A DNA stretch of 64,000 nucleotides, from NCBI GenBank assembly GCA_023953775.1, contig JAMLJD010000002.1, positions 39,245 through 103,244 of the forward strand, read 5' to 3'. The stretch comes from Rhizobiaceae bacterium (lineage in GTDB: Bacteria > Pseudomonadota > Alphaproteobacteria > Rhizobiales > Rhizobiaceae). The notes beneath the pieces were generated by a model. The model saw only the letters and a program-made list of their open reading frames with translations. It did no database searches and had not been told where the DNA came from. The position numbers and the translations under genes are program-made. Position 1 is the stretch's first letter. Each line of letters starts with the position of its first letter. Shown in pieces: positions 1-54,457 of this stretch.

Positions 1-268
1 AAGGAAATCCGCACCTCGGCCGCCGATCACGGCGCATCGTCGGTGCGCGGCATCCACGATGGCGACTGGTCCGTTGTCGGCTGGATCACCTCCGGCGGCT
101 ACGCACTATGTGTCGGCAAGTCGATGGCGCAGGGCCATGTGCCAGCCGAACTCGCTGCAAACGAGTAGCTTATGGCCTGTTCGAGATCGAGATCCTCGCA
201 AACGCTGCCCTGCCCGCATCAACGTCGAACCGCCCTTCGATCCGTCGGGCGAGAAAATGTGGGCTTGA
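1..268 (+). pseudogene. 3' end of a GcvT-family gene (aminomethyltransferase or dimethylglycine/sarcosine-dehydrogenase-type folate-binding domain). It is cut by the window edge and frameshifted twice.
   Basis: Frame 1 reads ...DGDWSVVGWITSGGYALCVGKSMAQGHVPAELAANE, then TAG at 166-168. The expected continuation sits in the other two frames: AYGLFEIEIL (from 168) and KRCPARINVEPPFDPSGEKMWA* (stop 266-268). Confidence 0.5.
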
Positions 269-318
269 TCGCGCGGGCGCGCCGGGCCACCCTCCCGGTT
301 CGGCCGGGAGGAAGGGCG

Positions 319-1118
319 ATGAACGACGACACGGCTCCTGCGGTGGATCTGGACGAGGCCGAGGCGGCCGTCGACCTGCCGCCGATCTGCCTGCGCGAGC
401 GCTACGATGCGCTGATGCAGGTGATCCGCAATCGTCACCGTGCGCGCCTTCGACCCGGATTTCCGAGGTGCCGAAGGAGCATTACGAACTCATCTCGAGG
501 CGGTTCGCCACGCGCCATCCGGCGCCAATGCGCAGCCCTGGCACTTCATCTGCGTCAGCGATCCTGTGCCTACGAAGCGAGATTGCCAGCTATTTCGCCG
601 AGGAGCAGCGCCGGCGAGCCAAGCTCAAGATGAAGTTCCCGGACGCCCGACTATCGCGGCCTGGCGACCGCGCCTGGCCTGATCGTCGTGGCGACCGACT
701 TCCGATGGGTGAGCGCCTTTCCGGTGCTGAAGGACGATACATCCGGATTCAACCGATGTATCGCGAGAATGCCGAACGCATCCTCCTGCAATCCGTGGCT
801 GCCGCGACCATGTCGGCGCACCTGCCGCCGGCGCGCTCGGCTACAATGTCTGGTGGGGTGGATGCGACCGCCAGAAGCTGCACAGGACGCGATGAAGCCG
901 ATGCTCGGCATTCCCGACGAGCTCTCCGTGCTCGACATCATGGCGTTCGGCCTGCCGGCCAAGGCGCCCTTACAAGCGCTGGCAAGCCACTCGACGACAT
1001 CACCAACTGGAACGGCGCTTCGGACCCCGCGCACCACATGAGCGACGCAGAACTGGACGACTGGATCCAGAACCAGCGCCACAAGGTGATGTACAAGGAC
1101 GCCTCGAAGATCGACTGA
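319..1118 (+). pseudogene. Nitroreductase-family gene broken by many frameshifts
   Basis: Signature segments are spread over all three frames. They include MNDDTAPAVD...IRNRH, EAVRHAPSGANAQPWHFICVSDP, EIASYFAEEQRRRAKLKMKFPD, VVATDFRWVSAFPVLKDD, MYRENAERILLQSVAAATMSAHL, MKPMLGIPDELSVLDIMAFGLPAK and the C-terminal KPLDDITNWNG...KDASKID*. Confidence 0.6.
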
Positions 1119-1140: not shown

Positions 1141-1899
1141 ATGCCCAACGACAGCCGCCCTGCCCGCCTCGCCGTCCTCATCGACGCTGACAACGCGTCG
1201 CCGAAGATCGCCGACGGCCTGTTCGAGGAGATCGCCAAGCTGGGCGAAGCCAGCGTCCGGCGCATTTACGGGGATTTCTCGAATTCGCGCTCGCGCGGAT
1301 GGGCCGACATTCTCGCCAAATACGCCATCATCCCGCAGCAGCAATTCGCCTATACGACAGGCAAGAACGCCTCCGACATCACCCTGGTGATCGACGCGAT
1401 GGATCTTCTGCACAGTGGCCGGTTCGAAGGCTTCTGCCTGGTCTCCTCAGACAGCGACTTCACGCGGCTTGCCGCGCGCATCCGCGAACAGGGCGTCGAC
1501 GTGTACGGCTTCGGCGAGCAGAAGACGCCGGAGAGCTTCCGCCAAGCATGCAGGCGTTTTGTCTACACCGAGAACCTGCTGCCGAGCGCGCCCGCCAACA
1601 CCGGGCAGACCGCCAAGGCATCGAAGCCGCTGCGCTCGCCCAAGGACGCGATCCCGATCATCGCCAAGGTGATCGAGCAGATGGAAACCGAGGACGGCTG
1701 GGTGCCGCTCGGCGCGGTGGGCACCCAGCTCGCCAACCTTGCCTCGGATTTCGACCCGCGCACCTTCGGGTTCAGGAAACTGAGCGATCTCGTGCGCGAA
1801 ACCGGTGGCTTCGAGATCGACCATCCCGAAGGCGGCTCGGTACGTATCAGGCGAAAAAGGCAGGCGACCCGGGCGCGCCGCGGCGGAACGAAGAAATAG
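1141..1899 (+). CDS. NYN (LabA-like) domain protein with a C-terminal OST-HTH/LOTUS domain
   Basis: The 252-aa ORF contains LAVLIDADNASP...RRIYGDFSN...ASDITLVIDAMDLL...FCLVSSDSDFTRLAARIRE.G..VYGFG, which is the typical NYN core. The C-terminal ~70 aa (IIAKVIEQME...GWVPLGAVGTQL...FGFRKLSDLV) is OST-HTH-like. Confidence 0.85.
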   Translation: MPNDSRPARLAVLIDADNASPKIADGLFEEIAKLGEASVRRIYGDFSNSRSRGWADILAKYAIIPQQQFAYTTGKNASDITLVIDAMDLLHSGRFEGFCLVSSDSDFTRLAARIREQGVDVYGFGEQKTPESFRQACRRFVYTENLLPSAPANTGQTAKASKPLRSPKDAIPIIAKVIEQMETEDGWVPLGAVGTQLANLASDFDPRTFGFRKLSDLVRETGGFEIDHPEGGSVRIRRKRQATRARRGGTKK

Positions 1900-1902
1900 G
1901 TC

Positions 1903-3261
1903 ATGGACAAGGCGGCGTCGGGCAGCTTCGGGCGTCATCGCAAAATCATGCCGTTCGACCCGGAAGCGGCCATGTCCGAGGAGCGTCTGCGCCGCGAGGC
2001 GCGCGAGAAGGCCGCCGCGCTCAACAGCCACGTCCTCGGCTACGGCCCGCTTGCCGAGGCGGAATGGGCCGAGGCGGGCATTTCAGCGCCCGACCTTTCC
2101 ACCATGCGCGCCTACCGTCTCGAGCGCATCCGCGCCGAACTCCGGCGTCGCGACTATGCGGGCGTGCTGCTCTACGATCCCGTCAACATCCGCTATGCGA
2201 CGGACAGCACCAACATGCAGCTTTGGGTGGCGCACAATCCCACGCGTCATTGCTTTGTTGCGACGGAAGGACCGGTGGTCCTGTTCGACTATTTTTCCTG
2301 CGAACACCTGTCCGACCATGCGGGAACCGTCGACGAAGTTCGCCCGGCTGTCTCGTGGATCTATCTCTATGGCGGCGAATTGACCGAGCGGCGCGTCGCG
2401 CGTTGGGCGGACGGCATCGCGGACCTCATGAGGGAGCATGGCGGCGGCAACGGGCGGCTCGCGGTCGATCACCTCGACCATGAAGGCGTCACCGCGCTCG
2501 CCGGACGTGGCGTCACCGTCCACAATGGTGAAGCGGTGATGGAAAACGCCAGGCTGATCAAGTCGCCCGACGAGATCCTCGCCATGCGCCGCGCGATCGT
2601 CGCCTGCGAGGCGGCGATGGGCGAGATGCATACCGCGCTCAGGCCCGGTGTGACGGAGAACGAGCTCTGGTCCGAGCTCCATCGCGGCAACATCGCACGC
2701 GGCGGGGAGTGGATAGAAACGCGCCTGCTGTCCTCGGGACCGCGCACCAATCCGTGGTTCCAGGAATGTTCGTCGCGCACCATCGAGGCCAGCGACCTCG
2801 TCGCCTTCGACACCGACCTGATCGGTCCCTACGGCTTCTGCGCCGACCTGTCGCGCACCTGGCTGTGCGGCGACGGACCCGCGACGAACGAGCAGCGCGA
2901 CCTCTATCGCATCGCCGCCGACCAGATCGCGCACAATTGTGCCCTGCTCCGGCCGGGCATCGGGTTCCGCGATCTCGTGCGCGCGTCGGTCGTGCCTCCC
3001 CCAGACTGCTTTCCGACCCGGTACGGGGTGCTCTATCACGGCGTCGGTTTGGCCGACGAATACCCCACCCTGCCGCACGAGACCGACTGGACCGACGACA
3101 CACCCGACGGCGAGTTGCTGCCGGGCATGGTGGTCTGCGTCGAAAGCTATGTCGGCAGGCTCGGCGGCCGCGAGGGCGTCAAGATCGAGGAACAGGTCCT
3201 CATCGCCCCGAACGGCTCCGAAATGCTGTCCTCCTACCCGCCCGACGACAAGCTCGTGTGA
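1903..3261 (+). CDS. M24-family metallopeptidase-fold enzyme of the DddP (DMSP lyase) subfamily
   Basis: The 452-aa ORF contains YDPVNIRYATDSTNMQLW..HNP, KSPDEILAMRRA, GGEWIETRLLSSGPRTNPWFQECSSR and VAFDTDLIGPYGFCADLSRTW. These blocks closely resemble the conserved blocks of roseobacter DddP as I remember them. The ATG lies 4 nt after the NYN gene stop, and the true start is uncertain. Confidence 0.8.
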   Translation: MDKAASGSFGRHRKIMPFDPEAAMSEERLRREAREKAAALNSHVLGYGPLAEAEWAEAGISAPDLSTMRAYRLERIRAELRRRDYAGVLLYDPVNIRYATDSTNMQLWVAHNPTRHCFVATEGPVVLFDYFSCEHLSDHAGTVDEVRPAVSWIYLYGGELTERRVARWADGIADLMREHGGGNGRLAVDHLDHEGVTALAGRGVTVHNGEAVMENARLIKSPDEILAMRRAIVACEAAMGEMHTALRPGVTENELWSELHRGNIARGGEWIETRLLSSGPRTNPWFQECSSRTIEASDLVAFDTDLIGPYGFCADLSRTWLCGDGPATNEQRDLYRIAADQIAHNCALLRPGIGFRDLVRASVVPPPDCFPTRYGVLYHGVGLADEYPTLPHETDWTDDTPDGELLPGMVVCVESYVGRLGGREGVKIEEQVLIAPNGSEMLSSYPPDDKLV

Positions 3262-25849: not shown

Positions 25850-27492
25850 ATGAAGAAACCGGATTTCGATGCCGTCGTGATCGGTGCTGGCATCAGCGGC
25901 ATGTACCAGCTCTATAGGCTGCGCGAGCTCGGATACAACGTGCTCGGCCTCGAGGCGTCCGACGATCTCGGCGGCGTCTGGCACCAGAACCGCTATCCGG
26001 GATGCCGCATTGATTCCGAAAGCGAGATCTACGGCTACTTCTGGAACCGTGAACTGATGCAGGAATTCGACTGGACGGAGCGATTCGCCGCCCAGCCTGA
26101 AGTACTCCGCTACCTGCATCGCGCCGCCGACTACATGGATATTCGCAAGGATTTCCGGTTCAACGCGCGCGTCAAGAGCGCCGTTTTCGACGAGCAGAAC
26201 CAGTACTGGACGATCGAGCTTCAGGAAGGCGGATCGGCATCATTGACGACGCGATTCCTGTTCAGCGCGTTGGGGCCTCTCTCCGCCCCCCAGATGCCCA
26301 ATATCGAGGGTGTCCACACATTCAGGGGCGAGACATATCACACGGCCCGCTGGCCACGGGATCCAACCGGATTCGGCCCCGCTAAGATTGATTTCTCCGG
26401 CAAGCGCATCGCCGTCATCGGCACCGGATCCTCCGGCGTCCAGGTGATCCAGGAGATGGCCAAGGTCGCCAGCCATCTGACGGTCTTCCAGCGCTCGCCC
26501 AACTGGTGCACGCCGCTCGGCAACGCGCCGATGCCGAAGGAGCGCATGGACGAGATCAAGGCGGACTACGACCGGTTCATTGCCGCCTGCGACGTGTCGA
26601 TTGCGGGCTTTCCGCACCAGTTTATCGAAAAGGACCTGGCAGACGTTCCCAAGGCCGAGCGCGATGCCACCTTGGAGCAACTTTACAACGGGCCGGGCTT
26701 CTCGCTGTGGCTGGGCGCCTATCAGGATGTCCTGACAGACGAGAACGCGAACGCCTATGTCTCGCAATTCGTGGCGGACAAGATCAGGCAGCGCGTCAAG
26801 GATCCCCGGATCGCGGAGAAGCTGATCCCGAAGGACCACGGCTTCGGCCTCAAGCGCGTGCCGCTGGAGACGCGCTATTTCGAAGTCTACAACCAGGACA
26901 ATGTCAGCCTCGTCGACTTGAACGAGACGCCGATCTCCCGCATCGGCCCGACCGGCATCCACACGGAATCCGCCGACTACGAATTCGACGTGATCATCTT
27001 CGCGACCGGCTTCGACGCCATCAAGGGCTCATGGAACCGCATCGACATACGCGGCCGCAACGGCGTCTCGCTCAAGGAAACGTGGGACGAGGAAGTGAAG
27101 ACCTATATGGGACTGCAGGTCTCGGGCTTTCCGAACTTCTTCATGCTCGTCGGGCCCCAGAACGGCGCCACCTTCTGCAATATTCCCCGCTGCTCTGCTC
27201 TGGTGACCGACTGGCTCACCCAGCTCATGCATCACGCCCGTGACAACCACATCCGAACTGATCGAGGCGACGCCCGAGCTCAGGTTCATGGACATCGTAT
27301 TGCGGCCATCTGCTCGGCAAGATGCTCCTCGGCAAGACAGACTCATGGTTCACCGGCATCAACAAGAATATCGCCGGACGCAACAAGCGCGAGACCCTGC
27401 TCTTCGTCGGCGGAAACCCGAACTTCCGGAAATATTGCGAGAAGGTCGAGGCCGACGGCTTTCGCGGCTTCGAGCTGTCGCAGGTCGGCTGA
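25850..27492 (+). pseudogene. Type I Baeyer-Villiger (flavin-containing) monooxygenase with two frameshifts in its 3' end
   Basis: The N-terminus is FDAVVIGAGISGMYQLYRL...GGVWHQNRYPGCRIDSE. The second Rossmann motif is IAVIGTGSSGVQ. After ...DWLTQLMHHARDNHIRT the reading frame degenerates. The expected tail SWTSYCGHLLGKMLLGKTDSWFTGINKNIAGRNKRETLLFVGGNPNFRKYCEKVEADGFRGFELSQVG* is in another frame and ends at 27492. Confidence 0.75.
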
Positions 27493-33088: not shown

Positions 33089-34123
33089 ATGGCAGATCGC
33101 AAGCGCCACGAACCGAAGGAGATCGAGGACGCGGATGCCGGGCGACTCGTCGCGCGCAACGAGCCCGAAGCTGATCTCGACGCCTACCGCCGCTGTCTCA
33201 GTCAGTTCGCGACCGGGGTGACCGTGGTCACGGCCAGGAGCGGGTCGCAACTCGTCGCGATGACGGCGAACTCGTTCTCGTCGGTCTCGCTCGATCCGCC
33301 GCTGGTATCGTGGTCCGTCAAGCGGGACAGCCAGAGCTTCCAGGCGTTTTCCGAGGCGTCCGGTTTCGTGATCAACATTCTCTCGAGCGACCAGATCGCA
33401 CTGTCACGCCACTTCGGAAAATCAGGAGACGACAAGTTTTCCGGCATCTCGTGGACGCCTGGTGTCGATGGATTGCCGCTGCTGAGCGGCGCGGCCGCAT
33501 GCATCGAATGCCGAAGGGTCCGCGACTTCGACGGCGGAGACCATCTCGTCATGTTGGGGCAGGTCGTACGGTTCACCCATTTCGACCGCAACGTTCTCCT
33601 CTTCGTTCAGGGCAAGTACGGCGTCGTCGGGGAGCATCCCGAACTGTTGACTGGCATGGGCGGAACCAAGGACGATTTCGCGGCAGGACCAGTCAACGAG
33701 TTCTTTGCCGGCCTTATGTATCGTGCATACGGCGCACTGGCCGTTGGGATGACGCAAGCACAGCATGAGCTCGGCTTCGATCCGGTCGAGGGACGGCTAC
33801 TCGGCGCTATCGCGACTTTCGCCGGCAGGACGGCCGAAACCCTGCTTCCCGAACTCTACCTGAGCACCAACGCGACGGAGAACGGTATCGCCTCACTCCG
33901 TGACCAAGGTCTCGTGGACGTTGCAGAGAGTGGGGTATTGCGGCTTTCAGATAAGGGGCAGGAACGCCTGAAAGATCTCACGCAGGCAATCCGCCTGCAC
34001 GAATCTGCTTTGCTGGACGGCGTCGCCCCCGCCGACGTCGAGCGGGCCCGTGGCGTAATGCGCCGTGTCATCGAAAACAGTCGCAGGAATAAGCGATTGC
34101 AGGACGGTGCCGCCGCAGACTGA
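33089..34123 (+). CDS. Fusion protein: NAD(P)H-flavin reductase domain plus a C-terminal MarR-like winged-helix domain
   Basis: Residues about 30-190 read FATGVTVVTAR....LVAMTANSFSSVSLDPPLVSWSV.....S...F......FVINIL...Q...S..F and GDHLVMLGQV, which is the Flavin_Reduct pattern. Residues about 215-330 show the MarR topology: LMYRAYGAL...GFDPVEGRLLGAIA...TAETLLPELYLSTNATENGIASLRDQGLV...RLSDKGQERLKDL. Confidence 0.75.
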   Translation: MADRKRHEPKEIEDADAGRLVARNEPEADLDAYRRCLSQFATGVTVVTARSGSQLVAMTANSFSSVSLDPPLVSWSVKRDSQSFQAFSEASGFVINILSSDQIALSRHFGKSGDDKFSGISWTPGVDGLPLLSGAAACIECRRVRDFDGGDHLVMLGQVVRFTHFDRNVLLFVQGKYGVVGEHPELLTGMGGTKDDFAAGPVNEFFAGLMYRAYGALAVGMTQAQHELGFDPVEGRLLGAIATFAGRTAETLLPELYLSTNATENGIASLRDQGLVDVAESGVLRLSDKGQERLKDLTQAIRLHESALLDGVAPADVERARGVMRRVIENSRRNKRLQDGAAAD

Positions 34124-34131
34124 GGCCGCCG

Positions 34132-34848
34132 CTAAAGTCCCATATAAGCTTCCTGGATCTGCGGATTGTTCATCAGTTCCCCCGCCGTGCCCATCGTCAC
34201 GATCGAGCCATGGTCGATGACGTAACCGCGGTCTGCAACCTCGAGCGCTTCGCCGACATTCTGCTCGACGAGGACCACGGTCAGGTTCTCTTTATCAACC
34301 AGCGACCGGATCGTTTCAAAAACCCGCTCCGTCATGACCGGAGACAGGCCCACGGACGGCTCGTCCAGCATCAGCAGGGTCGGCCGCGACATCATCGCGC
34401 GTGCGATCGCGCACATCTGGCGTTCGCCACCCGAGAGCTGCCCTGCGAGTTGCTGACGCCGCTCCTTCAGGATCGGAAAGACCTCGAAGAGTTCCGCCAT
34501 CCTCTGCTCGCGCTCGGCTCGCGCACGCTTTGCATAGGCGCCGAGCTCGAGGTTTTCCAGCACCGTCATGAATGGAAACAGACGGCCGCCTTCAGGAACC
34601 ATCGCCATCCTCAAGGCCGGTCGCAGATGAGCCGGAAGACCGGTAATCGTTGCCCCGTTAAGCTTGACTTCGCCAGATCTCGGCCGGATCAGTCCTGCGA
34701 GTGCCGAAAGGAGGGTCGTCTTGCCGGCGCCATTGGCACCGACGATACAAACGATCTCCGACTGGTCGGCATGGATCGACACGTCGTGAATGACGTTGGC
34801 TTCGCCGTAGCCCGCATCCAACGAACGTACATCGAGGATCCTCGTCAT
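34132..34848 (-). CDS. livF: Branched-chain-amino-acid-type ABC transporter ATP-binding protein (LivF-like)
   Basis: Walker A is GANGAGKTT, the signature is LSGGERQM and Walker B is LLMLDEPS. There is a 4-nt overlap with livG. Confidence 0.9.
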   Translation of the reverse strand: MTRILDVRSLDAGYGEANVIHDVSIHADQSEIVCIVGANGAGKTTLLSALAGLIRPRSGEVKLNGATITGLPAHLRPALRMAMVPEGGRLFPFMTVLENLELGAYAKRARAEREQRMAELFEVFPILKERRQQLAGQLSGGERQMCAIARAMMSRPTLLMLDEPSVGLSPVMTERVFETIRSLVDKENLTVVLVEQNVGEALEVADRGYVIDHGSIVTMGTAGELMNNPQIQEAYMGL

Positions 34849-35582
34849 CTCTTCTTCTTTCCGATGTAAGCGTCGATGACGTCCGGGTCTGAAAGCACTT
34901 CGCTCGCGCTGCCGTCCGCGATGAGATTGCCGCGATCGAGCACGAGAACACGCTTCGAGAACGCCCGCACGACCTTCAGATTGTGCTCGATCACGATAAT
35001 GGTGTGTCCGGCCTCGTTAAGTGCGAGGACAAGGTCGACGATCCTGTTGACCTCGGTCTGGTTCAGGCCGGCCATCACCTCGTCGAGCAGGAGTACCCGC
35101 GGTTCCATCGACAGAGCGCGCGCAACCTCCAGCCGACGCCGCTCGCCGAGTGTCAGGTGTCCGGCAAGTTCGCCTGCCCTGTGATCCAGACCGACCTTTT
35201 CGAGTGCGGCAAGAGCCGTTTCGGCCGCTTCTCTCAGCGCTGCGTGATGCAGGAAGGCGCCGATCATCGCATTCTCGAGCACCGTCAGCGAAGTCAGCGT
35301 CTGGGAGATCTGGAAGGTGCGCCCGAGACCGAGCCGCGCCCTGCGGCTGGGGCGCTCTCGGCTGATGTCGGCCCCCTCATAGACCACGCGCCCGGCCGTC
35401 GGACTGAGCTGACCCGTCAGGATGTTGAACAGAGTCGTCTTGCCTGCGCCATTCGGGCCGATCAGGCTGACAAGGTCTCCCGAGCCGACGCCGAACGACA
35501 CATCATTGACCGCGACGATGCCACCGAAACGCTTCGAGACGGTTTCGATGCCCAGATGGACTGCGCTCATTGCCGTCTCCAA
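34845..35582 (-). CDS. livG: Branched-chain-amino-acid-type ABC transporter ATP-binding protein (LivG-like)
   Basis: Walker A is GPNGAGKTT, the signature is LTLGERRRLEVARAL and Walker B is LLLDEVMAG. Confidence 0.9.
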   Translation of the reverse strand: METAMSAVHLGIETVSKRFGGIVAVNDVSFGVGSGDLVSLIGPNGAGKTTLFNILTGQLSPTAGRVVYEGADISRERPSRRARLGLGRTFQISQTLTSLTVLENAMIGAFLHHAALREAAETALAALEKVGLDHRAGELAGHLTLGERRRLEVARALSMEPRVLLLDEVMAGLNQTEVNRIVDLVLALNEAGHTIIVIEHNLKVVRAFSKRVLVLDRGNLIADGSASEVLSDPDVIDAYIGKKKR

Positions 35583-36592
35583 ACAGCGTCAAGCGCCTGT
35601 TTGAGCGCACCGAATATTCCCCGTTTCATGAACAGCGCACCGAGAATAAGGATCAGCGCCAGCACCATCAGATTGCCGCCCGGAACGGCGCTGCCGACAA
35701 ATGCCCTCAGCCAGTAGTCGAGCGGAATGAGCAGCAGGGCTCCGAGTAGCGGTCCGTAGATCGTCCCGATACCTCCGATCAGGGCGATCAGCGCAATCTT
35801 CACGCCGACGTCGAACAGCGATAGCAGGCCGGCCGGTTCGACGATACGCACATACATCATGTAGAAGACGCCACCCGCTCCTGTAAGTGCGGCGCTGATG
35901 GCCATCCCCTTGAGCTTGGTCGCCAGCACGTTGATGCCGGACGCTTCGGCAGCGTTCTCGTTGTCCCGAACCGCCTGGAGATAGAAGCCGAGCCGACTGC
36001 GGTAGACGATCACGGAGACCGCCAGCGCAGCGGCAAGATATCCCAGGAACAGCACGGCATAGGCCCACCGTGCCTGGAAGATCATGTTCTCCAGCCCGGC
36101 ACGATAGGGAATGGTAAGCCCGCTGGCACCGCCGGTTATAAGGTCGAAGTGCATCGCAAAGGCGATCGCTACCTCGGTCAACGCCATCGTTGCGATGGCG
36201 AAGAATGGGCCCTTGAGCCGGAATACCGGCCAGGAAACCAACGCGGCGATCCCGGCGCTCAACACCATCGCAGGTATGAGTGATATCCATGGTGATATGT
36301 CGAAATGCTTGAAGAGATTACCCGCCGTGTACGCACCGATAGCGAAAAACACGCTGTGCGCGATCGAGAACTGGCCGCCATATCCGCCAATGATGTTCCA
36401 GGAAACAGCCAGACCGCCGAACAGCAGCGCTACTGTCAGCAGGTTGAGGTAGAAGAACTGTCCTGACAGAAGGAACACCAACAGGCCCAGTCCGCAGACG
36501 ACGGCCAGCCAGATAGGCAGCTCCTTCCGAACGGTCCATACCCCGTCGACAGCAGACCTGGTATCCGGAACCGGGCCGGCTGCTGACCGCAT
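35567..36592 (-). CDS. livM: Branched-chain-amino-acid-type ABC transporter permease (LivM-like)
   Basis: The ORF is polytopic, with WNIIGGYGGQFSIAHSVFFAIGAY and the EAA-like segment VRDNENAAEASGINV. The start is uncertain. The ORF is open to 36661, which would overlap livH. Confidence 0.85.
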   Translation of the reverse strand: MRSAAGPVPDTRSAVDGVWTVRKELPIWLAVVCGLGLLVFLLSGQFFYLNLLTVALLFGGLAVSWNIIGGYGGQFSIAHSVFFAIGAYTAGNLFKHFDISPWISLIPAMVLSAGIAALVSWPVFRLKGPFFAIATMALTEVAIAFAMHFDLITGGASGLTIPYRAGLENMIFQARWAYAVLFLGYLAAALAVSVIVYRSRLGFYLQAVRDNENAAEASGINVLATKLKGMAISAALTGAGGVFYMMYVRIVEPAGLLSLFDVGVKIALIALIGGIGTIYGPLLGALLLIPLDYWLRAFVGSAVPGGNLMVLALILILGALFMKRGIFGALKQALDAVWRRQ

Positions 36593-36614
36593 GCCGAGAC
36601 CCTCGCTCGTCGTA

Positions 36615-37505
36615 TCAAGATTGCTCACGCAGACCCACCTCTTCCGCTCCAACCTTGCCAAACAGGCCGGACGGCCTGACCAGGAGGACGGCGATGAACA
36701 CTATGAAAATGACGGCATGCTTCAGTTCGGGGTCGATGTAGTAACCGGCAAATGCTTCGGTGAGCCCGACGATGAAACCGCCGACGAAGGCACCGGCAAC
36801 ACTCCCCAGACCGCCGAGCACGACGACCGCGAATGCGGCCATCACGAAGTTGCCCCCGATATGCGGAGACAAGGTGTAGATCGGCGACAGGAGCACTCCG
36901 GCGAGACCGGCGAGGCCGGTCCCTATGCCGAAGGTCCACATATACGTAGTCTGCACGTTGATGCCCATGAGCTGCGCGGCGCGGCGGTCCTGGGCGACCG
37001 CGCGGATTGCTTTGCCGACGGTCGAACGGGCCAGGAACACCCCGAGCGCGGCCGCTGCGAGCGCCGCCGCCACCAGGACGATCAGCCGGGAGACCGAGAA
37101 CTGCACCGGACCTAGCGACAGTGCGACCTGCGACAGTGGCGTGTTGATGCTGAAGCTCAACCCGCCAGTGATGGCGAGCACGATATTCTGGAGCAGAAGC
37201 AGTAGGCCGAAGCTGGCGAAGACCTGCATCATCGGCTCGTTCTGCAGCGGCCGCATGACGAGCCAGTAGACGACGACGCCAAGCAGGATCAGCGCGGGAA
37301 CGACGATCAGAACGGTGACATACGGGTCCAGCGCCAGAACGCTGTAGCCCAGATAGGCACCGTACATGCCCAGCATGAGAAACTCGCCCTGGGCGAAGTT
37401 GATGATCCTGATGACCCCAAAAATCAGGTTCAGTCCTACGCTGACCAGCGCATAGATGCCGCCAAGCAGCAGGCCAAGTGTGATGACATTGAGGAGCTGT
37501 TCCAT
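36615..37505 (-). CDS. livH: Branched-chain-amino-acid-type ABC transporter permease (LivH-like)
   Basis: The ORF begins MEQLLNVITLGLLLGGIYALVSVGLNLIFGVIRIINFAQGEF and contains AVAQDRRAAQLMGINV. Confidence 0.9.
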   Translation of the reverse strand: MEQLLNVITLGLLLGGIYALVSVGLNLIFGVIRIINFAQGEFLMLGMYGAYLGYSVLALDPYVTVLIVVPALILLGVVVYWLVMRPLQNEPMMQVFASFGLLLLLQNIVLAITGGLSFSINTPLSQVALSLGPVQFSVSRLIVLVAAALAAAALGVFLARSTVGKAIRAVAQDRRAAQLMGINVQTTYMWTFGIGTGLAGLAGVLLSPIYTLSPHIGGNFVMAAFAVVVLGGLGSVAGAFVGGFIVGLTEAFAGYYIDPELKHAVIFIVFIAVLLVRPSGLFGKVGAEEVGLREQS

Positions 37506-37653
37506 TGGAAGATCCGCTTGTCAGGGGCCGGCGGAGGTGCGCATTGCGAGCGCGTGGCATCGATCGCGAAGGTTCAAACGGGTCTGACCCGTTCCCGCAT
37601 ATCGAACGGAAAGTCCGGCGGCACATCTGCGCGCCGCCGGGAGCGATGTGTGC

Positions 37654-38877
37654 TTACGGGCGGGCCGTATCTTTCATCTCGACACCCTCAGGCGCCGCCT
37701 CGGGCGGCCAGACCACCGTCGTGATGTCTCCCTGCCACTGATAGGTAACGGCATCGGCGCGCGTATTCTGCATATTGTCGTCGAATTTCACGCCGTAGCC
37801 GGTGGGGAATGTTCCCTTGGGAAGGTCCATCTCCTTCGCCGCGGCGATCAGCGCCTCCGGCGAAGTGTCGCCGCCGGTCGCTTCGAGGGCTTTGAACAGG
37901 ACCTGCATCCCGACATAGCCGTTGAAACCCGAATTGCCGACCGGGTCCTCGCCATATTTGGCGCGGAACGCATCGTTGGCAGCGTCGGATCCGGGTGCAT
38001 AGCTTTGATTGATGTGGTGACGCGGATAAGTAACGATCAGCACGCCCTGAAGATAGTCCTGGCCGACCGCGTCCGACGTCTCTTTGGAATCGCCAAGCCC
38101 GATCAGGATAGTGGCGCGCGGCTTGAACTGCTGTTCGCGCATGGTGCGAAGCAGGAGGTTGGTGTCGACCACGTATCCGGCGATGATGTAGACGTCCGGA
38201 TCGAAGTCCTTGGCGCGCAGGATCGCGTCGGTGAGGTCCACCGAAGACGCCTTGTGCCCGGCCGTCTGGATCGAGCTCCCCTTCTCCTTGATGAGACGGT
38301 CAAGCTCCGCGGCGATCGACGAACCGTAGTTTGAATCTTCGTGCTCCACCCACACCTTGAGTGCGCCGACATCCTTGCCCATGTCGGCGGCAAGCTTGCT
38401 GGTGCTCACGTCCGCAGCCTGCAGAGCATAGTAGGCCGCGCTCGGTCCGGTACGCAGGAAGTTCGGCAGGCCGCGTTCAGTAAGGCCGACGGCCAGTGCG
38501 TTGGTCTCCCAGTACATCTTGTTGTAATTGAGCGTCGCCTCGCTCGCAGCCTGGGAGATAAAGGAAGCAATGGTGCCAGTCACGATATCGACTTCATCGA
38601 CCGTCGTCAGCTTGTCGACCGCCGCGATCGCTTCCTGCGCGTTGGTCGCGTCACCGCGAATGATCTGAATCTTGTGACCGGCCACGCCGCCGTTTGCGTT
38701 CGCCTCTTCCGCAGCCATCTCGTACCAGCGGGCGAGGTCATTGCCGAGGATTGCCATGCCTCCCGTATTGGGTGTGATGGCGCCGATCTTGATCGTATCT
38801 TCCTGGGTAAATGCCGGGGACGAGATGCTGCCGGCCAAGATCGCAGCGGCTACACCGTTGCGGATAAATTTCTTCAT
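37654..38877 (-). CDS. Liv-type (family 4) periplasmic substrate-binding protein
   Basis: The signal peptide is MKKFIRNGVAAAILAGSISSPAFT. IKIGAITPNTGGMAILG follows, typical of the Peripla_BP_6 family. A GGGAGGAAG ribosome-binding site precedes the start. Confidence 0.9.
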   Translation of the reverse strand: MKKFIRNGVAAAILAGSISSPAFTQEDTIKIGAITPNTGGMAILGNDLARWYEMAAEEANANGGVAGHKIQIIRGDATNAQEAIAAVDKLTTVDEVDIVTGTIASFISQAASEATLNYNKMYWETNALAVGLTERGLPNFLRTGPSAAYYALQAADVSTSKLAADMGKDVGALKVWVEHEDSNYGSSIAAELDRLIKEKGSSIQTAGHKASSVDLTDAILRAKDFDPDVYIIAGYVVDTNLLLRTMREQQFKPRATILIGLGDSKETSDAVGQDYLQGVLIVTYPRHHINQSYAPGSDAANDAFRAKYGEDPVGNSGFNGYVGMQVLFKALEATGGDTSPEALIAAAKEMDLPKGTFPTGYGVKFDDNMQNTRADAVTYQWQGDITTVVWPPEAAPEGVEMKDTARP

Positions 38878-39045
38878 TCCACTTCCTCCCGAGTAAGGGC
38901 AGCCGATCATCGGCGACCCTCGTTGCGCTCCGCTTCCCGGCCCCGCATCAAGCGCCTCATTGAGCCCGGAGGACGCGACAGGGATGGCCCGGTTTGCAGC
39001 GTGAGAACGTTAGCAGCCGCATCCCCGATGACCATTGCCGCATCG

Positions 39046-39062
39046 TGCAATGGACTGTTGCA
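39046..39062. promoter_or_regulatory. Inverted repeat upstream of the liv-type operon
   Basis: TGCAA-N7-TTGCA lies about 170 nt upstream of the SBP start in the 264-bp intergenic region. Confidence 0.2.
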
Positions 39063-39140
39063 AACGGGCGCGTCGTCCTGCCGGCTAAACCGCCATGCAT
39101 CCGGCCGGCGCAGGGGGATGTGTAACGATCGTGGCATACG

Positions 39141-40328
39141 TCAGCTGCGGCGGCGATAGGCGACGAAGCCGAGAAACGCCGTGGCGCCCATCGCCGGTAT
39201 GATGGTCGAGAACGCCAATACGGGATTGGGAAGCAGAGCGCCGGCGCTGCCGCACACGAGCCCGAAACTCATTTGGAGGAAACCCATCATAGACGCCGCG
39301 GCACCTGCGCTTCGAGGGAACGGATCAAGGGCGGCGGCTGTCATTGCCGGCATGACGAACGCAATGCCGAACGAGAATACCGCGACGGGCCACAAGACAA
39401 GCCAGAGTGTGGGCGCGTGGATGACAAGCGCCGCCATGCCCAGACAAGCTATGCCGATCATGACGTAACCGGCACCCGCCAACCTGTCCGGCGCCACGCG
39501 GACGATCAGCGGACGCACGGCGAGAGATCCGAGAAAGAAGCCGGCGGGATGCACGAGCGAGCAGACGCCGAACTCGACCGGGGACAGCCCGATAACTTCA
39601 ATAAGGATGAAAGGAAGGAAGATGTTGTTGGCATAAACGGCCCCAATCAGCGCAGCGAGTGCGACGGTGGCGGCTAGATATTGCCGGTCTTGCAAAATCT
39701 CTCTGTAAGAGCGCACGGATGCCGCGAAGTTCAGCCGCGACCAGTCCGCGGTGACGGTCTCCCGCAACTGGAGCAGAGTAACCAGGACGATCGCAATACC
39801 GAACCCGGCCATGAAGAGAAAAACCGAGCGCCAGCCGAGATAGGTGATCATAGCCCCGCCGATGATCGGAGATATGGCCGGGGCGATCGCCAGGATCAGG
39901 CCTATGAAATTGATAACGCGTGCTGAGCGATCTCCGGTAAACACGTCTCGCACAAGGGCGCGAGAGATCGACATGCCAGCCGCCGCGCCGATACCCTGCA
40001 CGAAACGTGCCGCAATCAACAGACCGATCGTGTCGGCGAAATAGGCGGCGACGCTCGCCGCGCAGAAGCAGCCGATGAAGCAGTAGAGTGCGGGACGCCG
40101 GCCGATCGCGTCGGATAGCGGCCCTACGACCAGTTGCGAACAGGCGAAGCCAGCGAAGTAGATCGAAACCGTGAACTTCACCTCCGCGGCGGTGGCTCCG
40201 AAGCTCTGGGCTATTTCCGACACTGCCGGCAAATAAAGGTACATCGATACAGGGCCGACCGCGATCAGCATCGCACCGATGATGCTGATGCGGCGCTCGC
40301 TCATGATCGGCGCAATCATGTTGGCCAT
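39141..40328 (-). CDS. MFS transporter of the Bcr/CflA drug-resistance subfamily
   Basis: The ORF has 12 predicted TM spans. It contains LYLPAVSEIAQSFG, the motif A-like GPLSDAIGRRPAL and FVQGIGAAAGMSISRALVRD. Confidence 0.85.
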   Translation of the reverse strand: MANMIAPIMSERRISIIGAMLIAVGPVSMYLYLPAVSEIAQSFGATAAEVKFTVSIYFAGFACSQLVVGPLSDAIGRRPALYCFIGCFCAASVAAYFADTIGLLIAARFVQGIGAAAGMSISRALVRDVFTGDRSARVINFIGLILAIAPAISPIIGGAMITYLGWRSVFLFMAGFGIAIVLVTLLQLRETVTADWSRLNFAASVRSYREILQDRQYLAATVALAALIGAVYANNIFLPFILIEVIGLSPVEFGVCSLVHPAGFFLGSLAVRPLIVRVAPDRLAGAGYVMIGIACLGMAALVIHAPTLWLVLWPVAVFSFGIAFVMPAMTAAALDPFPRSAGAAASMMGFLQMSFGLVCGSAGALLPNPVLAFSTIIPAMGATAFLGFVAYRRRS

Positions 40329-48461: not shown

Positions 48462-49324
48462 TCATGCGGCAAGTTCCGCGCGTCCGTGGGAGATGACGAC
48501 CACGTCGCGTTCGACGGCGCGGGTTCGGAAAATAAGCGAGGAACCTTCAAGCCATATCTCTGTGGCAAAGGTCTCCCCGGCATAGGCCGGCGCGGTGAAG
48601 CGGCAGTCCAGCGCGCGGATCCGGGCCGGGTCGTAGTCGCATACCGCGCGCAGGATGGCGTGCGCGGCCACGCCATATGTCGCCAGGCCGTGCAGCACCG
48701 GGCGGCGAAATCCGGCTGCTACCGCGGTTTCGGGGTCTACGTGAAGCGGATTGAGGTCTGCGCTCAACCGGTAGATGAGGGCCATCTGCGGCACTGTCGA
48801 CAGCATGCAGACGATATCAGGTGCCTGATCGGGCATCGCGACCCGCGGCGGCAGCGGGCCCGATGGCCCGCCGAAGCCGCCATCGTTCCTGCAAAAGGCC
48901 GTGTGCCCGACGGTGGCCAGCAAGGCGCCGCTGTCCTTGTCGAAGATCGCGTTCCGAAAGAAGCAGCGCACCGCGCTTCAGCCCCTTGTCGACGACGTTG
49001 GTGACCCGCGTCCTTCCGATGACGGTGCCCCGGACCGGCAGCGGATGGTGAATTCGGAGCCGCTGTTCGCCGTGCAGCACATGCAGATAGTCGATACCCG
49101 TGTCGAGATCGCGCGGCCACAGGCCGGGCTGTGCAAGCACGGCGAGGGTCGGAAGCACCCTCAGGTCCTTTTCGTAAGACGAAGCGCAGCGTCTCGGGGA
49201 TCGTCCGGGCTTTCACCCAGTCCGACGCCGAGGGCATAAAGGATGACGTCCTTTTCCGAGTAGGTCTTACCTGCTCGACCTCGGGGATATCAAGTTCAAG
49301 GAGTTTCCTGTAGTCGATCGGCAT
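48462..49324 (-). pseudogene. Double-hotdog MaoC-type hydratase (MFE-2 hydratase-like) with about five frameshifts
   Basis: The segments are MPIDYRKLLELDIPEVEQ, KTYSEKDVILYALGVGLGESPDDP, ETLRFV, YEKDLRVLPTLAVLAQPG...IDYLHVLHGEQRLRIHHPLP...VVDKG and FDKDSGALLATV...YRLSADLNPLHVDPE.A..AGF..P.LHG. They lie in three different minus-strand frames. Confidence 0.65.
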
Positions 49325-49338
49325 GTTGGACTCTTGCC

Positions 49339-50127
49339 TCACGCCGGCTGGAAAGCAGTGTGCGAAGATGGGGCAAATGTCTTTTCAGCGGTAAAGCCGC
49401 CATCCACCGGCAGTACCGCGCCGGTGATGTATGATGCCCGGTCAGATGCCAGGAAGGCCACCGCGTCGGCAATCTCGGCTGGCCTGCCCGGCCTGCCGAG
49501 CGCGACGGATTCCACGATCGCGGATCGGAACGCTTCGTCACTGAGATAGCGGGCGGTCATCGGTGTCTCGATCATGCCAGGTGCCACCGCGTTGACCCTG
49601 ATGCCGTATGGAGCAAGGTCGCCCGCGTAAGATCGCGTGAGGCCGACCACGCCATGCTTTGAGGCATTGTAGGCGGCGCGCCCCGGGACCGAGATCAGGC
49701 CTGCGATGGATGCGATGTTGACGATGGCGCCGGAACGCGCCGCTATCATCACCTCAGACACCGCCCGAATGCAGTTGAAGACGCCGCCGAGGTTGATGTC
49801 GAAGACCTTCCTCCAGTGGTCGGTGTCGAGTTTCAGCGTGCTCTGGCTCTGGAGGATGCCGGCATTGTTGACCAGAACGGAGATGCCGGCGAACCGCCTG
49901 AGCACCGCCTTGACCATCTCGCCTACCGAACAGTCATCCGCGACATCGCAGGCAAACCCCTCGACGACGGCTCCGTCCTTGCGCAACAGATGGACGGCAT
50001 TCGAGACGGCGTCCTCGCGAAGGTCGACCAGCGCGATTGCATGGCCCTCGCCGGCGAGCAGCCGCGCGACGGCTATCCCGATGCCCCCCGCTCCACCCGT
50101 GACGATCGCTGCATTCCTTCCGGCCAT
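49339..50127 (-). CDS. SDR-family oxidoreductase
   Basis: The ORF contains NAAIVTGGAGGIGIAVA, NNAG and YNASKHGVVGLTR. It is an intact 262 aa. Confidence 0.9.
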   Translation of the reverse strand: MAGRNAAIVTGGAGGIGIAVARLLAGEGHAIALVDLREDAVSNAVHLLRKDGAVVEGFACDVADDCSVGEMVKAVLRRFAGISVLVNNAGILQSQSTLKLDTDHWRKVFDINLGGVFNCIRAVSEVMIAARSGAIVNIASIAGLISVPGRAAYNASKHGVVGLTRSYAGDLAPYGIRVNAVAPGMIETPMTARYLSDEAFRSAIVESVALGRPGRPAEIADAVAFLASDRASYITGAVLPVDGGFTAEKTFAPSSHTAFQPA

Positions 50128-50311
50128 CAGGCCTGATCCTCCGAAGAATTGATAAGCTCAATTCACACCAGATCGGTCCGGGAGGCATTACTTTGCATTC
50201 GCAAAGGACCGTTGCGCGCCGCCGCGCCGTGCCTGTCTGGCTATCGTTCAACGCATGGAGAAAAATGTCGGCCGAGACGCCCAACCGGGTTGGCAACGGG
50301 ACGAGGAAGCC

Positions 50312-51336
50312 ATGGCCGACGCCACAAAGACCAAGCCACACGTGCCACCTGTCGACGAGGAATGGTTGGCACAGGACTCCGAACCACCGCTGCCGACGAC
50401 GATGGAGGTGGTCGACAGCCATATCCACCTTTGGGATTTTTCGACGCCGCCCTATTTCGGCGATACCTACCGCGCCGATGCGAACACGGCCGGCATATCC
50501 GCATCGGTGTTCGTCGAATGCACGATGGCCTATCGGGACACCGGTCCTGACAACGAGCGCGTCGTGGGCGAGGTCGAGTTCGCGCAGCAGCAGGCCGAAC
50601 GATACTCGTCCTCTTCGCTCGCACTCAATGCAGCGATTGTCGGCATGGTCGACGTCACGCTGGGAGACCGTATCGTCCCCGTTCTCGAAATGCTCGATGC
50701 CGTATCGGACGGGCGGTTGCGCGGTATCAGGATCCGTGCAGCACACGATCCAGATCCCACCGTGGGCTACGGCGAAAAGGGAGTGCCCGCCGAGCTGCTC
50801 GGTCAGGCGGAAGTGCTGACGGCGCTGAAAAGCTCCACGCGGCCGGCCATTCGCTGGATGTCTACGCGTTCCATACGCAATTGCCGGAGGTCGAGGCATT
50901 GGCTCGCCGCCCGACTATTTCCGATCGTGGTAAACCATATAAAGGCGGCCCACTCGGCGTTGGCCCTTATGCGCAGATACCGGAAGAGGTCCGGACACTG
51001 TGGATGAAGAACATGGCATCGCTCGCGACATGCGAAAACGTGCATGTCAAAATCAGCGGCTTCGCCATCTCCCGGATCAACATCGTGTCGGCTTCAGGCC
51101 GGCAGGCGCCGCCGTCCTCACAGGAACTCGAAGAACTGTTCCGCCCCTGGTTCGACCACTGTCTGGAAACGTTCGGCGCTCGGCGCTGCATGTTCGGGTC
51201 CAACTTCCCCGTCGACAAGAATGCCATGACGCTGACGACGCTGGTCAACGCCATCAGGCGGCTGTCGGCGAAACTGTGCGGCGACGAGGCATCCGCCTTG
51301 CTGGCCGGTACGGCGCGGCGCTTCTATAGGATCTGA
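50312..51336 (+). pseudogene. Amidohydrolase-2 family (PF04909-like metal-dependent hydrolase/decarboxylase) gene with three frameshifts
   Basis: The N-terminus reads VVDSHIHLWDF. After ...AEVLTALK the sense continues in another frame (KLHAAGHSLDVYAFHTQLPEVEALARR). It returns (FPIVVNHI) and shifts again (GGPLGVGPYAQIPEEV...KISGF...MFGSNFPVDK...ARRFYRI*). The shifts are near 50830, 50905 and 50935. Confidence 0.65.
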
Positions 51337-51373
51337 AAGCTGGACGTTCCAGCCCACCCATGGAGACAAGCTT

Positions 51374-52290
51374 TTGGCCACCATGCACGCCGTCAGATTT
51401 TCCGCGTATGGCGGGCCTGGCACCCTTGAATACTGCACCGTCGAGCAGACGAAGCCGGCTCCCGGAGAAATATCGGTCGAAGTCACGGCGATCGGGGTCA
51501 ATCCCGCTGACCACAAATTCCGCTCGGGTGCGCTGTCCGGCCATCGGCCCAAGGCGCTGCCTCTGATCCCGGGCATGGATGTCTCGGGCCACGTGACCGA
51601 GCTCGGAGAGGTGTGACCCGGTTTTCACGCGGTGACAGGGTTTTCGGTATGCTGCCGCCCTCACGACTTGGAAGCTATGCCGAGTTCGCCACCGGTTCCG
51701 CTGGATTCTTTGCTCCGGTGCCGGACACGCTCGATATGGTTCTCGCTGCCGCATTGCCTACGCCCGGACTTACGGGCGTGGAAATGATCGATGACGACCT
51801 CAATGTCACGCATGGCGACAGGGTGCTGGTGATCGGGGCGCTTGGGTATTGGGCGCGCAGCCGTTTTCGCAGCCCGCCGTCGCGGCGCCACCGTCACCGC
51901 AGCAGTCAGGACCGGCCGGACGGGCGAAGGCAAGCGCGGCCGACACGGTCATCGAAACGGGCGAGGCATGCCATGTTGAGTTCGACGCGATCTGCGACAC
52001 GGTCGGCGGAGAAATCGCGGCGGCGTATTATCCCAATCTAAAGTCCGGCGGCGTATTCTGCTCGGTGTCTACGAACAGGTTGCCGCCGCCAACGCGCGAT
52101 GACATCGTCGTCCGCAACTTCGTCTGTTATCCCGATGTCCAGAAGCTGGCCGAACTGGCCGTTGCCGCAGCTTCCGGCTTTGATTCCACCGGTCCGTGGA
52201 ACGCTGCCGCTGTCCGCTGCATCGGCCGCCCATACGCGGCTTGAGGCGGGCGAGCGCAAGAAGTTCGCTCTTGTCCCTCGGGGCGAGTAA
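51374..52290 (+). pseudogene. Zn-independent MDR-family quinone oxidoreductase-like gene with at least four frameshifts
   Basis: The fragments are HAVRFSAYGGPGTLEY...VEVTAIGVNPADHKFRSG...LIPGMDVSGHVTELGE | VTRFSRGDRVFGML...GSYAEFA...DRVLVIGALG | GRAAVFAARRRGATVTAAV | AADTVIETGE...GGVFCSV | LPLSAASAAHTRLEAGERKKFALVPRGE*. The first shift would be restored by one extra G at about 51610. Confidence 0.6.
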
Positions 52291-53153: not shown

Positions 53154-54457
53154 TCAACCCGCCATGCGCGGCAGGAAGAGTATGATGTCGGGAAACGCCA
53201 TCAGCAGCACCACCACCAGAAGATCGGCGAGGATGAAAACTGTCACACCCTTGAAGATGGTCGACAATTCAACCGAGTCGCCAAGAACCGACTTGATGAC
53301 AAACACGTTGAGGCCGACAGGTGGGGTGATCATGCCGATCTCGAGCAGCTTCGCCAGGATGACGCCGAACCAGATCATGTCGAAGCCCGCCTCGTCTGCG
53401 ATCGGCAGCAGGATCGGAAGCGTAAGCAGCACATCGCCCCCATCGGGTCGAGGAACATTCCGAGGACGAAATAGATCAGAGTAATACCCGCGAGCAGCAG
53501 CGCCGGATGACCGCTCACCTGGATGATAAGCTCCGCAAGCGCGTCGCCCGCGCCACTCAACGCAACGAAGCGTGTCAACAGGTTCGCGCCAATCGCAATG
53601 ATGAAAAGTGCCGCTGAGGTCGCGAACGACTCGATCACCGAATTCTTGAAGCACTCGGTTGGCGTTCGCATTCCGGCGGTGACCGGTACCCGATACCGGA
53701 TCCGACCGCTCCCTGCTTCAGTAGGCGTGAAGATGCCGCTGAACAGACCGCCGAACACTGCTGCGGCGAGCACGAGGGCCGGCAGGATCAGCATCAGTGT
53801 CCTGAACCGCTCGTTCCAGCCGAAGGTCTCCGTAACGCGCGGGGCCGCTGACGGGCGCAAGGTGCACCAGACGAAAACGACCGCGACATAGGAGGCAGCC
53901 GTCAGGATGCCGGCCGCCGCACCGCCGAGAAAGAGCTTTGAGATCGGCTGCTGCGCCAGGATGCCGAAGATGATGAACAGTATGCTGGGCGGGATTAGCG
54001 CGCCGATCGTGCCCGCGGCCGCCACCGTACCGGTCGCCAGGGCCGGATTGTACCTTGATCGCATCATCTCCGGGACCGCGATCCGGCCCATCGCCGCCGC
54101 ACATGCCACAGAGGATCCGGTCAGCGCGGCGAAGCCGGCCGCGCCGAAGATGCTGGCGATGGCGAGCCCTCCGGGCAATCGCGAGAGCCAGACCCGCGCC
54201 GCCTCGAAGAGGCCGCGGGTAATGCCGGCGTGATAACAGAGAAACCCCATGAACAGGAACATGGGCACTGAACTGAGCTGCCAGTTGGCAGCGAAATTGT
54301 ACGGAGCAATCCTGAGGATGCCGACAGCCGAAGGCAGGCCGATCAGTGCCCAGATCCCGCCGAAGGAGACTCCGATCAGCGCGACCCCGATGGGCACGCG
54401 CAGGCCGATTAGGAGGACCAGTATACCCAGGCCGACGAAACCGACTGTCTCATTCAT
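53154..54457 (-). pseudogene. dctM: TRAP transporter large permease (DctM family) with one frameshift near its 3' end
   Basis: The ORF runs MNETVGFVGLGILVLLIGLRVPIGVALI... through ...LIYFVLGMFLDPMGAM, then becomes nonsense. The expected tail LLTLPILLPIADEAGFDMIWFGVILAKLLEIGMITPPVGLNVFV...* lies in the adjacent frame and ends at 53154. The shift is near 53430. Confidence 0.75.

Follow-up and report, generated by a model that had tools for sequence, protein, structure and literature searches.

Why are two adjacent genes riddled with frameshifts when the peptides that they encode remain recognizable throughout? The question arises at the start of the window (the whole stretch of 64,000 nucleotides that was analysed), which corresponds to G000:C26:39,245-103,244 in an assembly of 4.23 Mb, with 113 contigs, a GC content of ~65%, and an estimated completeness of 90.5%. 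G000 would seem to be a MAG from a rhizobial genus that is not yet described, since the relatives of the NYN protein encoded just downstream of the two genes have at most 84% identity and since none of the 30 relatives used as the comparison set belongs to the same genus. The nearest named relatives of this protein, found by scans of metagenome and genome contigs, were in Mesorhizobium, Nitratireductor, and Aquamicrobium, which at ≤84% are too distant for a comparison at the nucleotide level; an exact-match look-up with the same protein returned no match. The ends of contig C26 overlap other contigs by ~120-160 bp at 94-98% identity (C26:1-157 matches the end of C113, and C26:144,511-144,632 matches the start of C27), which suggests that the contigs were derived from a graph and altered after assembly.

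The two genes are as follows:

1–268, plus strand: 3' end of an FAD oxidoreductase/GcvT-domain gene of ~857 codons (dimethylglycine- or sarcosine-dehydrogenase-like), with indels at 166, 171/173, and 199

319–1118, plus strand: nitroreductase-family gene (PF00881) of ~266 codons, with 14 small indels

A frameshift-aware protein-to-DNA alignment with the intact 264-aa orthologue from G003 (71% identity) revealed 10 frame switches in 319-1118 and, once the frame had been corrected, not a single in-frame stop, as the original prediction had proposed for the conserved blocks of the nitroreductase. The read-through translation, searched against a large protein collection, retrieved two intact proteins of 266 aa with 88-89% identity. 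An intact gene of this length is carried by contigs L188-L191, which were obtained from four public assemblies that are independent of one another (Logan SRR28144571 and ENA ERZ27309230, ERZ28655088, and ERZ27309136) and which share with the window the order GcvT-domain gene end, nitroreductase, NYN/OST-HTH, and M24 peptidase; the comparison with the orthologous loci of close relatives, proposed at the outset as a check, hence found intact genes in the same arrangement. The window and these contigs have ~95% nucleotide identity, which makes an exact mapping of the indels possible. In the nitroreductase gene, this mapping gave 14 events, namely 435 (-2), 464 (+1), 494 (-1), 578 (+1), 642 (+1), 756 (-1), 824 (-1), 858 (+1), 871 (-1), 875 (-1), 971 (+1), 984 (-2), 1017 (+2), and 1023 (+1). 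The prediction of at least five and probably about nine switches was, therefore, right in kind and too low in number (10 by protein alignment and 14 by nucleotide alignment). In the GcvT-domain gene end (1-268), where two frame changes had been predicted, there are three indels, at 166 (+1), 171/173 (+1), and 199 (-1), which amount to two net frame changes. The domains of this gene, read from its G006 orthologue, are DAO, FAO_M, GCV_T, and GCV_T_C.

The region 1-1118, to which the damage had been attributed, turned out to be only its end, because the affected block reaches 5.7 kb upstream of the window and has a sharp end within it:

1–1023, no strand assigned: last 1 kb of the error-rich block, the whole of which is C26:~33,576-40,267 (window -5668 to 1023)

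1141–1899, plus strand: intact NYN/OST-HTH gene in a single frame of 252 codons, with no indel relative to L189-L191

Four genes, on both strands, are affected in this block of ~6.6 kb; alignment with orthologues from G003 (for the nitroreductase) and from G006, G015, and G018 gives a minimum of 71 frame changes. The DAO/FAO_M/GCV_T gene (~857 codons, ending at position 268) accounts for 28 of them in the comparison with G006; the MttB-family gene upstream of it has 24, together with one stop; and the minus-strand class-III aminotransferase gene, in the middle of which the block starts, has nine between codons 39 and 296, codons 297-457 being free of them. The M24 peptidase gene just downstream of the block (1900-3258), which served as a control for the same method, has none. 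Since the protein-based alignment detects only roughly two thirds of the nucleotide-level events, the true number in the block is probably near 100. At the other edge, the NYN/OST-HTH gene is the first clean gene past the block: relative to L189, there are 23 indels from -175 to 1023 (19 per kb) and none in 1024-2523, a stretch of 1,500 bp that would be indel-free under the in-block rate with a Poisson probability of ~3e-13. This agrees with the original argument that an error spread uniformly could not produce the pattern, for the error is patchy, and the long neighbouring genes are single frames of 836, 662, and 528 codons. The aminotransferase (minus strand), MttB-family methyltransferase, and DAO/GCV_T dehydrogenase genes occupy C26:33,100-39,500 (window -6150 to 268), form a cluster that is syntenic in G006, G015, and G018, and lie entirely within the error block; the cluster looks like a betaine/dimethylglycine-type catabolic unit.

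Substitutions were also considered. Relative to the ~95% identical contigs, the mismatches at codon positions 1/2/3 were 4/12/27 in the nitroreductase gene and 6/5/15 in the GcvT end, compared with 5/3/32 and 5/2/21 outside the block, such that positions 1 and 2 account for 39% of the mismatches inside and 22% outside. This small excess is consistent with ~0.8% of added mismatch error. At columns that are invariant among the relatives, substitutions private to G000 gave a divergence of 23.5% for the control gene and of only 11-21% for the patch genes; with the control gene being the more diverged, only the contrast inside the aminotransferase gene, 20.6% in the patch part versus 8.8% outside it, is suggestive.

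The C26 block has many counterparts in the assembly. A hidden Markov model of codon usage, trained on the long ORFs of the genome itself, found 286 places at which the frame switches on one strand with no stop close by, and these are strongly clustered, with 65% of the neighbour distances below 1 kb versus the 6.5% expected if they were random. They delimit around a dozen strong patches, each 2-14 kb long, and ~30 windows exceed the threshold. The patches lie inside contigs, have a normal GC content, and include C81:51-65.5 kb, two in C103 (41-49.5 and 61-69 kb), C76:6.5-18.5 kb, C48:100.5-109.5 kb, and C69:5-12.5 kb. Frame switches are virtually absent from contigs such as C21, C37, and C59. 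When every contig was compared with every other, most large patches proved to have a second copy on another contig, with an identity of ~89-96% and many gaps: C111 (12.0 kb) corresponds to C81:52.4-64.4 kb, C76 (26 kb) corresponds to C103:42-69 kb, and further redundant pairs are C110/C48:98-109.5 kb, C84/C69, C93/C36, C107/C92, and C90/C18. C52 and C89 also form a redundant pair. Altogether, the redundant sequence in the bin comes to ~139 kb and consists of whole contigs that duplicate inner parts of larger contigs.

These second copies give an indication of what the differences are. C81 and C111 differ by 383 mismatches that are spread evenly over codon positions 1/2/3 of C111 (118/118/125), and C111 has no frame switch in the codon-model scan; the mismatches between C69 and C84 are similarly even (75/64/69). 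In duplicates that are poor in gaps, the counts are 30/14/167, 7/3/71, and 1/1/57, and such differences represent genuine divergence between lineages that were binned together. The contrast between the even spread in the gap-rich pairs and the third-position dominance in the gap-poor ones means that the gap-rich differences are random errors rather than the result of evolution. The C48/C110 pair (103/75/369) has a mixture of true third-position divergence and indel errors. In C76 and C103, the frame-broken segments are complementary, one copy being unbroken where the other breaks, as would be expected if each read had polished only one of two competing copies. By comparison with the C81 patch, the C26 block is more dominated by indels and has a modest excess of mismatches; the randomness of the mismatches with respect to codon position, which is evident in the sister patches, gives a weaker signal in C26. 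The duplicates that are free of gaps, 2-11% divergent, and dominated by third-position differences, are C74/C91, C13/C5, C50/C85, C11/C94, C43/C94, C66/C86, and C46/C69; given their presence, often at contig ends, two related lineages or strains have been co-binned in the MAG.

The nature of the indels bears on their origin. The 23 indels found in the block relative to L189 comprise 15 of one base, four of two bases, three of three bases, and one of five bases, and they lie in base runs of 1-4. A like mix is found between broken-frame and intact-frame copies elsewhere in the assembly, with 157 indels of 1 nt and 69 of 2 nt, in both directions; 88 of 180 single-base insertions are unlike both of their neighbours, and 38% of the single-base deletions lie outside any base run, although runs of at least three bases are over-represented ~threefold. 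The idea that the events, where they could be reconstructed, are single-base changes in short mononucleotide runs is partly borne out: around two thirds of the events involve a single base, but many are outside runs, and the remark about short runs holds only trivially, for runs of 1-4 bases. Slippage and phase variation operate on long mononucleotide runs or short tandem repeats, whereas here the runs are of 1-4 bases, some events are of 2 nt, and there are insertions that do not resemble their neighbours. The spectrum resembles, instead, that of a raw or low-depth long-read consensus.

One conceivable explanation is that the shifted genes are still decoded, via programmed frameshifting or insertional/deletional RNA editing, and the stop-free, conserved peptide blocks distributed over three frames do have a superficial likeness to cryptic edited genes. 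In programmed ribosomal frameshifting, however, the ribosome shifts once, in a defined direction, on a slippery sequence, whereas the 800 bp of the nitroreductase gene contain 14 events of 1-2 nt, of both signs, and with no common sequence context. Moreover, the same density of events continues over a gene on the opposite strand and ends in the middle of it, and the look-alike blocks elsewhere have intact-frame second copies; decoding of this kind is effectively refuted. Mixed-sign events of 1-2 nt, at a density of ~2% and crossing genes and strands, likewise exclude an alternative genetic code and phase variation, as they do programmed frameshifting and RNA editing.

Another explanation would be a very recent and real pseudogenization, in which a burst of small indels inactivated the 6.6-kb betaine/dimethylglycine cluster together with the nitroreductase gene; a burst of slippage targeted to selected genes was one of the two alternatives offered by the original prediction. 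These are accessory catabolic genes, the loss of which is plausible, and intact genes in close relatives fit such a loss equally well. Genuine pseudogenes, such as those in genomes undergoing reductive evolution, do share with the C26 genes the broken frames and the recognizable homology to intact orthologues. They also respect gene units and gather substitutions and stops, whereas the 800 bp of the nitroreductase gene hold 14 indels without a stop, and the block, which begins in mid-gene and spans both strands, shifts the first two thirds of the aminotransferase gene but not its final ~160 codons. With ~16-19 indels per kb, almost no stops, and a third-position bias that is kept, without the relaxed non-synonymous substitution typical of pseudogenes, indels would have to outnumber substitutions vastly; a true accumulation of ~100 indels in a gene would have left far more than the one stop seen in ~2,200 frame-corrected codons. 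The spectrum is not slippage-like, and around a dozen similar blocks exist in the assembly, the intact-frame second copies of which differ from them by random errors. Pseudogenization is, consequently, very improbable, and the targeted burst is not supported. A related idea, that the indels are real and arose in a localized shower over multi-kb tracts in a sub-population, too recently for substitutions or stops to have followed (for example, during error-prone synthesis in the repair of a double-strand break or through the uptake of damaged DNA), would seem a shade more improbable still.

The explanation that we favour with high confidence, on the evidence of sequence comparisons, is that the C26 frameshifts belong to a near-raw, long-read-like patch of consensus that escaped polishing and that they do not reflect biology. 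It corresponds to the other alternative of the original prediction, a locally poor consensus due to coverage or polishing, which gains support from the extent of the block, the indel spectrum, and the sister patches with their second copies. Dense small indels of mixed sign occur here in an otherwise clean assembly, independently of gene boundaries and of strand (the block starts in mid-aminotransferase on the minus strand and continues through three plus-strand genes), as is characteristic of such artefacts. All four genes of the block are, then, most probably intact in the organism.

Comparable errors have been described. Frameshifts due to small indels are common in long-read metagenomes (bioRxiv 10.1101/2021.08.23.457338; PMC9262707), and errors remain after polishing, especially where repeats make the alignment of short reads unreliable (PMC8812927). 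The residual errors of long-read and hybrid assemblies reported in these three studies (PMC8812927, PMC9262707, bioRxiv 10.1101/2021.08.23.457338) likewise fragment genes into conserved peptide blocks, and they persist at low depth or where the placement of reads is not unique; this assembly, too, has redundant contigs. The usual leftovers of polishing are, however, sparse and confined to homopolymers, whereas the C26 block has ~1.5-2% indels over several kb, which is the level of raw reads, and many of its events lie outside homopolymers.

How might such patches have arisen? The consensus of the MAG is very uneven, mostly clean but with about a dozen blocks of 2-14 kb that contain ~1.5-2% small indels plus some random mismatches. 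Most likely, the draft of these blocks was supplied by a single error-prone long read or a few of them, and polishing then brought few or no further reads to bear, either because the reads were drawn off by a near-identical second copy elsewhere in the assembly or because the block belongs to a strain variant of low coverage. We infer both the long-read platform and the polishing mechanism, the term "long-read-like" being taken from the error spectrum. A search for a second copy of the C26 block within the bin found none, and read competition would apply to this block by analogy with the patches that do have one.

Could the block, instead, come from a rare co-occurring strain, correctly assembled but poorly resolved at very low depth, and then stitched into the contig of the dominant strain? 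The gap-poor duplicates, which indicate that the bin holds two lineages ~2-11% apart, are in favour of this, as is the C48/C110 pair (103/75/369), in which true divergence and indel errors are combined. This possibility, which we consider unlikely without dismissing it, still falls under the artefact and would not make the frameshifts biological, since the indels would be errors all the same; the C26 block has no second copy from which its lineage could be read.

To return to the unpolished patch, the window contains further sites at which the same pattern had been predicted, at 27.25 kb, 48.5-52.3 kb, and 53.43 kb, and it is indeed found at each of them in the form of frame shifts or split Pfam domains:

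27252–27297, plus strand: flavin monooxygenase (BVMO-like) gene, with two frame shifts 45 nt apart near its 3' end

48462–52290, no strand assigned: lower-density cluster of frame breaks in MaoC-type hydratase, Amidohydro_2, and ADH_N genes, with Pfam domains split between frames

53432–53713, minus strand: dctM, with five indel events in the alignment to L192-L195

In the second of these regions, the MaoC-type double hot-dog domain is split at 48963 and the Amidohydro_2 domain at 50826 (Pfam), and an intact SDR gene sits among the broken genes. A sensitive scan with the codon model gave 3.7 switches per kb in 48462-52290 versus ~0.9 per kb genome-wide; at this low penalty, the model yields 3,818 switches, too many of which are false, and only the relative density was taken from it. 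A search for the DNA of relatives covering 48.3-52.4 kb found no close reference. The same kind of model had also indicated a truncation of a CoA-transferase at 62.3-63.5 kb, which proved to be an artefact of the model, the 398-codon frame being intact.

In dctM, residues 1-330 and 333-412 of the Pfam DctM domain are in different frames around 53439. Contigs L192-L195, which come from four samples and are 97-98% identical to the window, encode an intact DctM of 434 aa, and relative to them the events are +2 at 53432-53433, -3 near 53656, -3 near 53679, +2 at 53690-53691, and +1 at 53713. Beyond this cluster, the comparison of the window with the longest of these contigs, L192, revealed no other indel in 4.9 kb. 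The cluster spans 280 bp and includes a compensating +1/+2 pair that garbles ~8 codons. It is a miniature patch of the same kind as the C26 block.

If this reading is correct, the C26 frameshifts are an artefact of assembly quality with no biological significance, and ~2-4% of the MAG would be of near-raw quality, in which genes are miscalled as pseudogenes or split ORFs; the bin, in addition, carries redundant contigs and two co-binned lineages. No gene loss (in betaine/dimethylglycine catabolism or TRAP transport, for instance) should be claimed for this genome before it has been re-polished.

A clean genome of this lineage is best sought in the samples that yielded L189-L195. These contigs, 94-98% identical to the window, are from ENA ERZ27309136, ERZ27309144, ERZ27309230, ERZ28655088, ERZ28655783, and ERZ28656179 and from Logan SRR28144571 and SRR32696344; the samples appear to belong to one or two studies, with record names that contain 'WANG18-1_SAMN08389...'. 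Finally, the NYN + OST-HTH/LOTUS protein encoded at 1141-1899 is unusually conserved, with 78-84% identity across Mesorhizobium, Bradyrhizobium, Devosia, Shinella, and Nitrobacter and with hundreds of metagenomic relatives.
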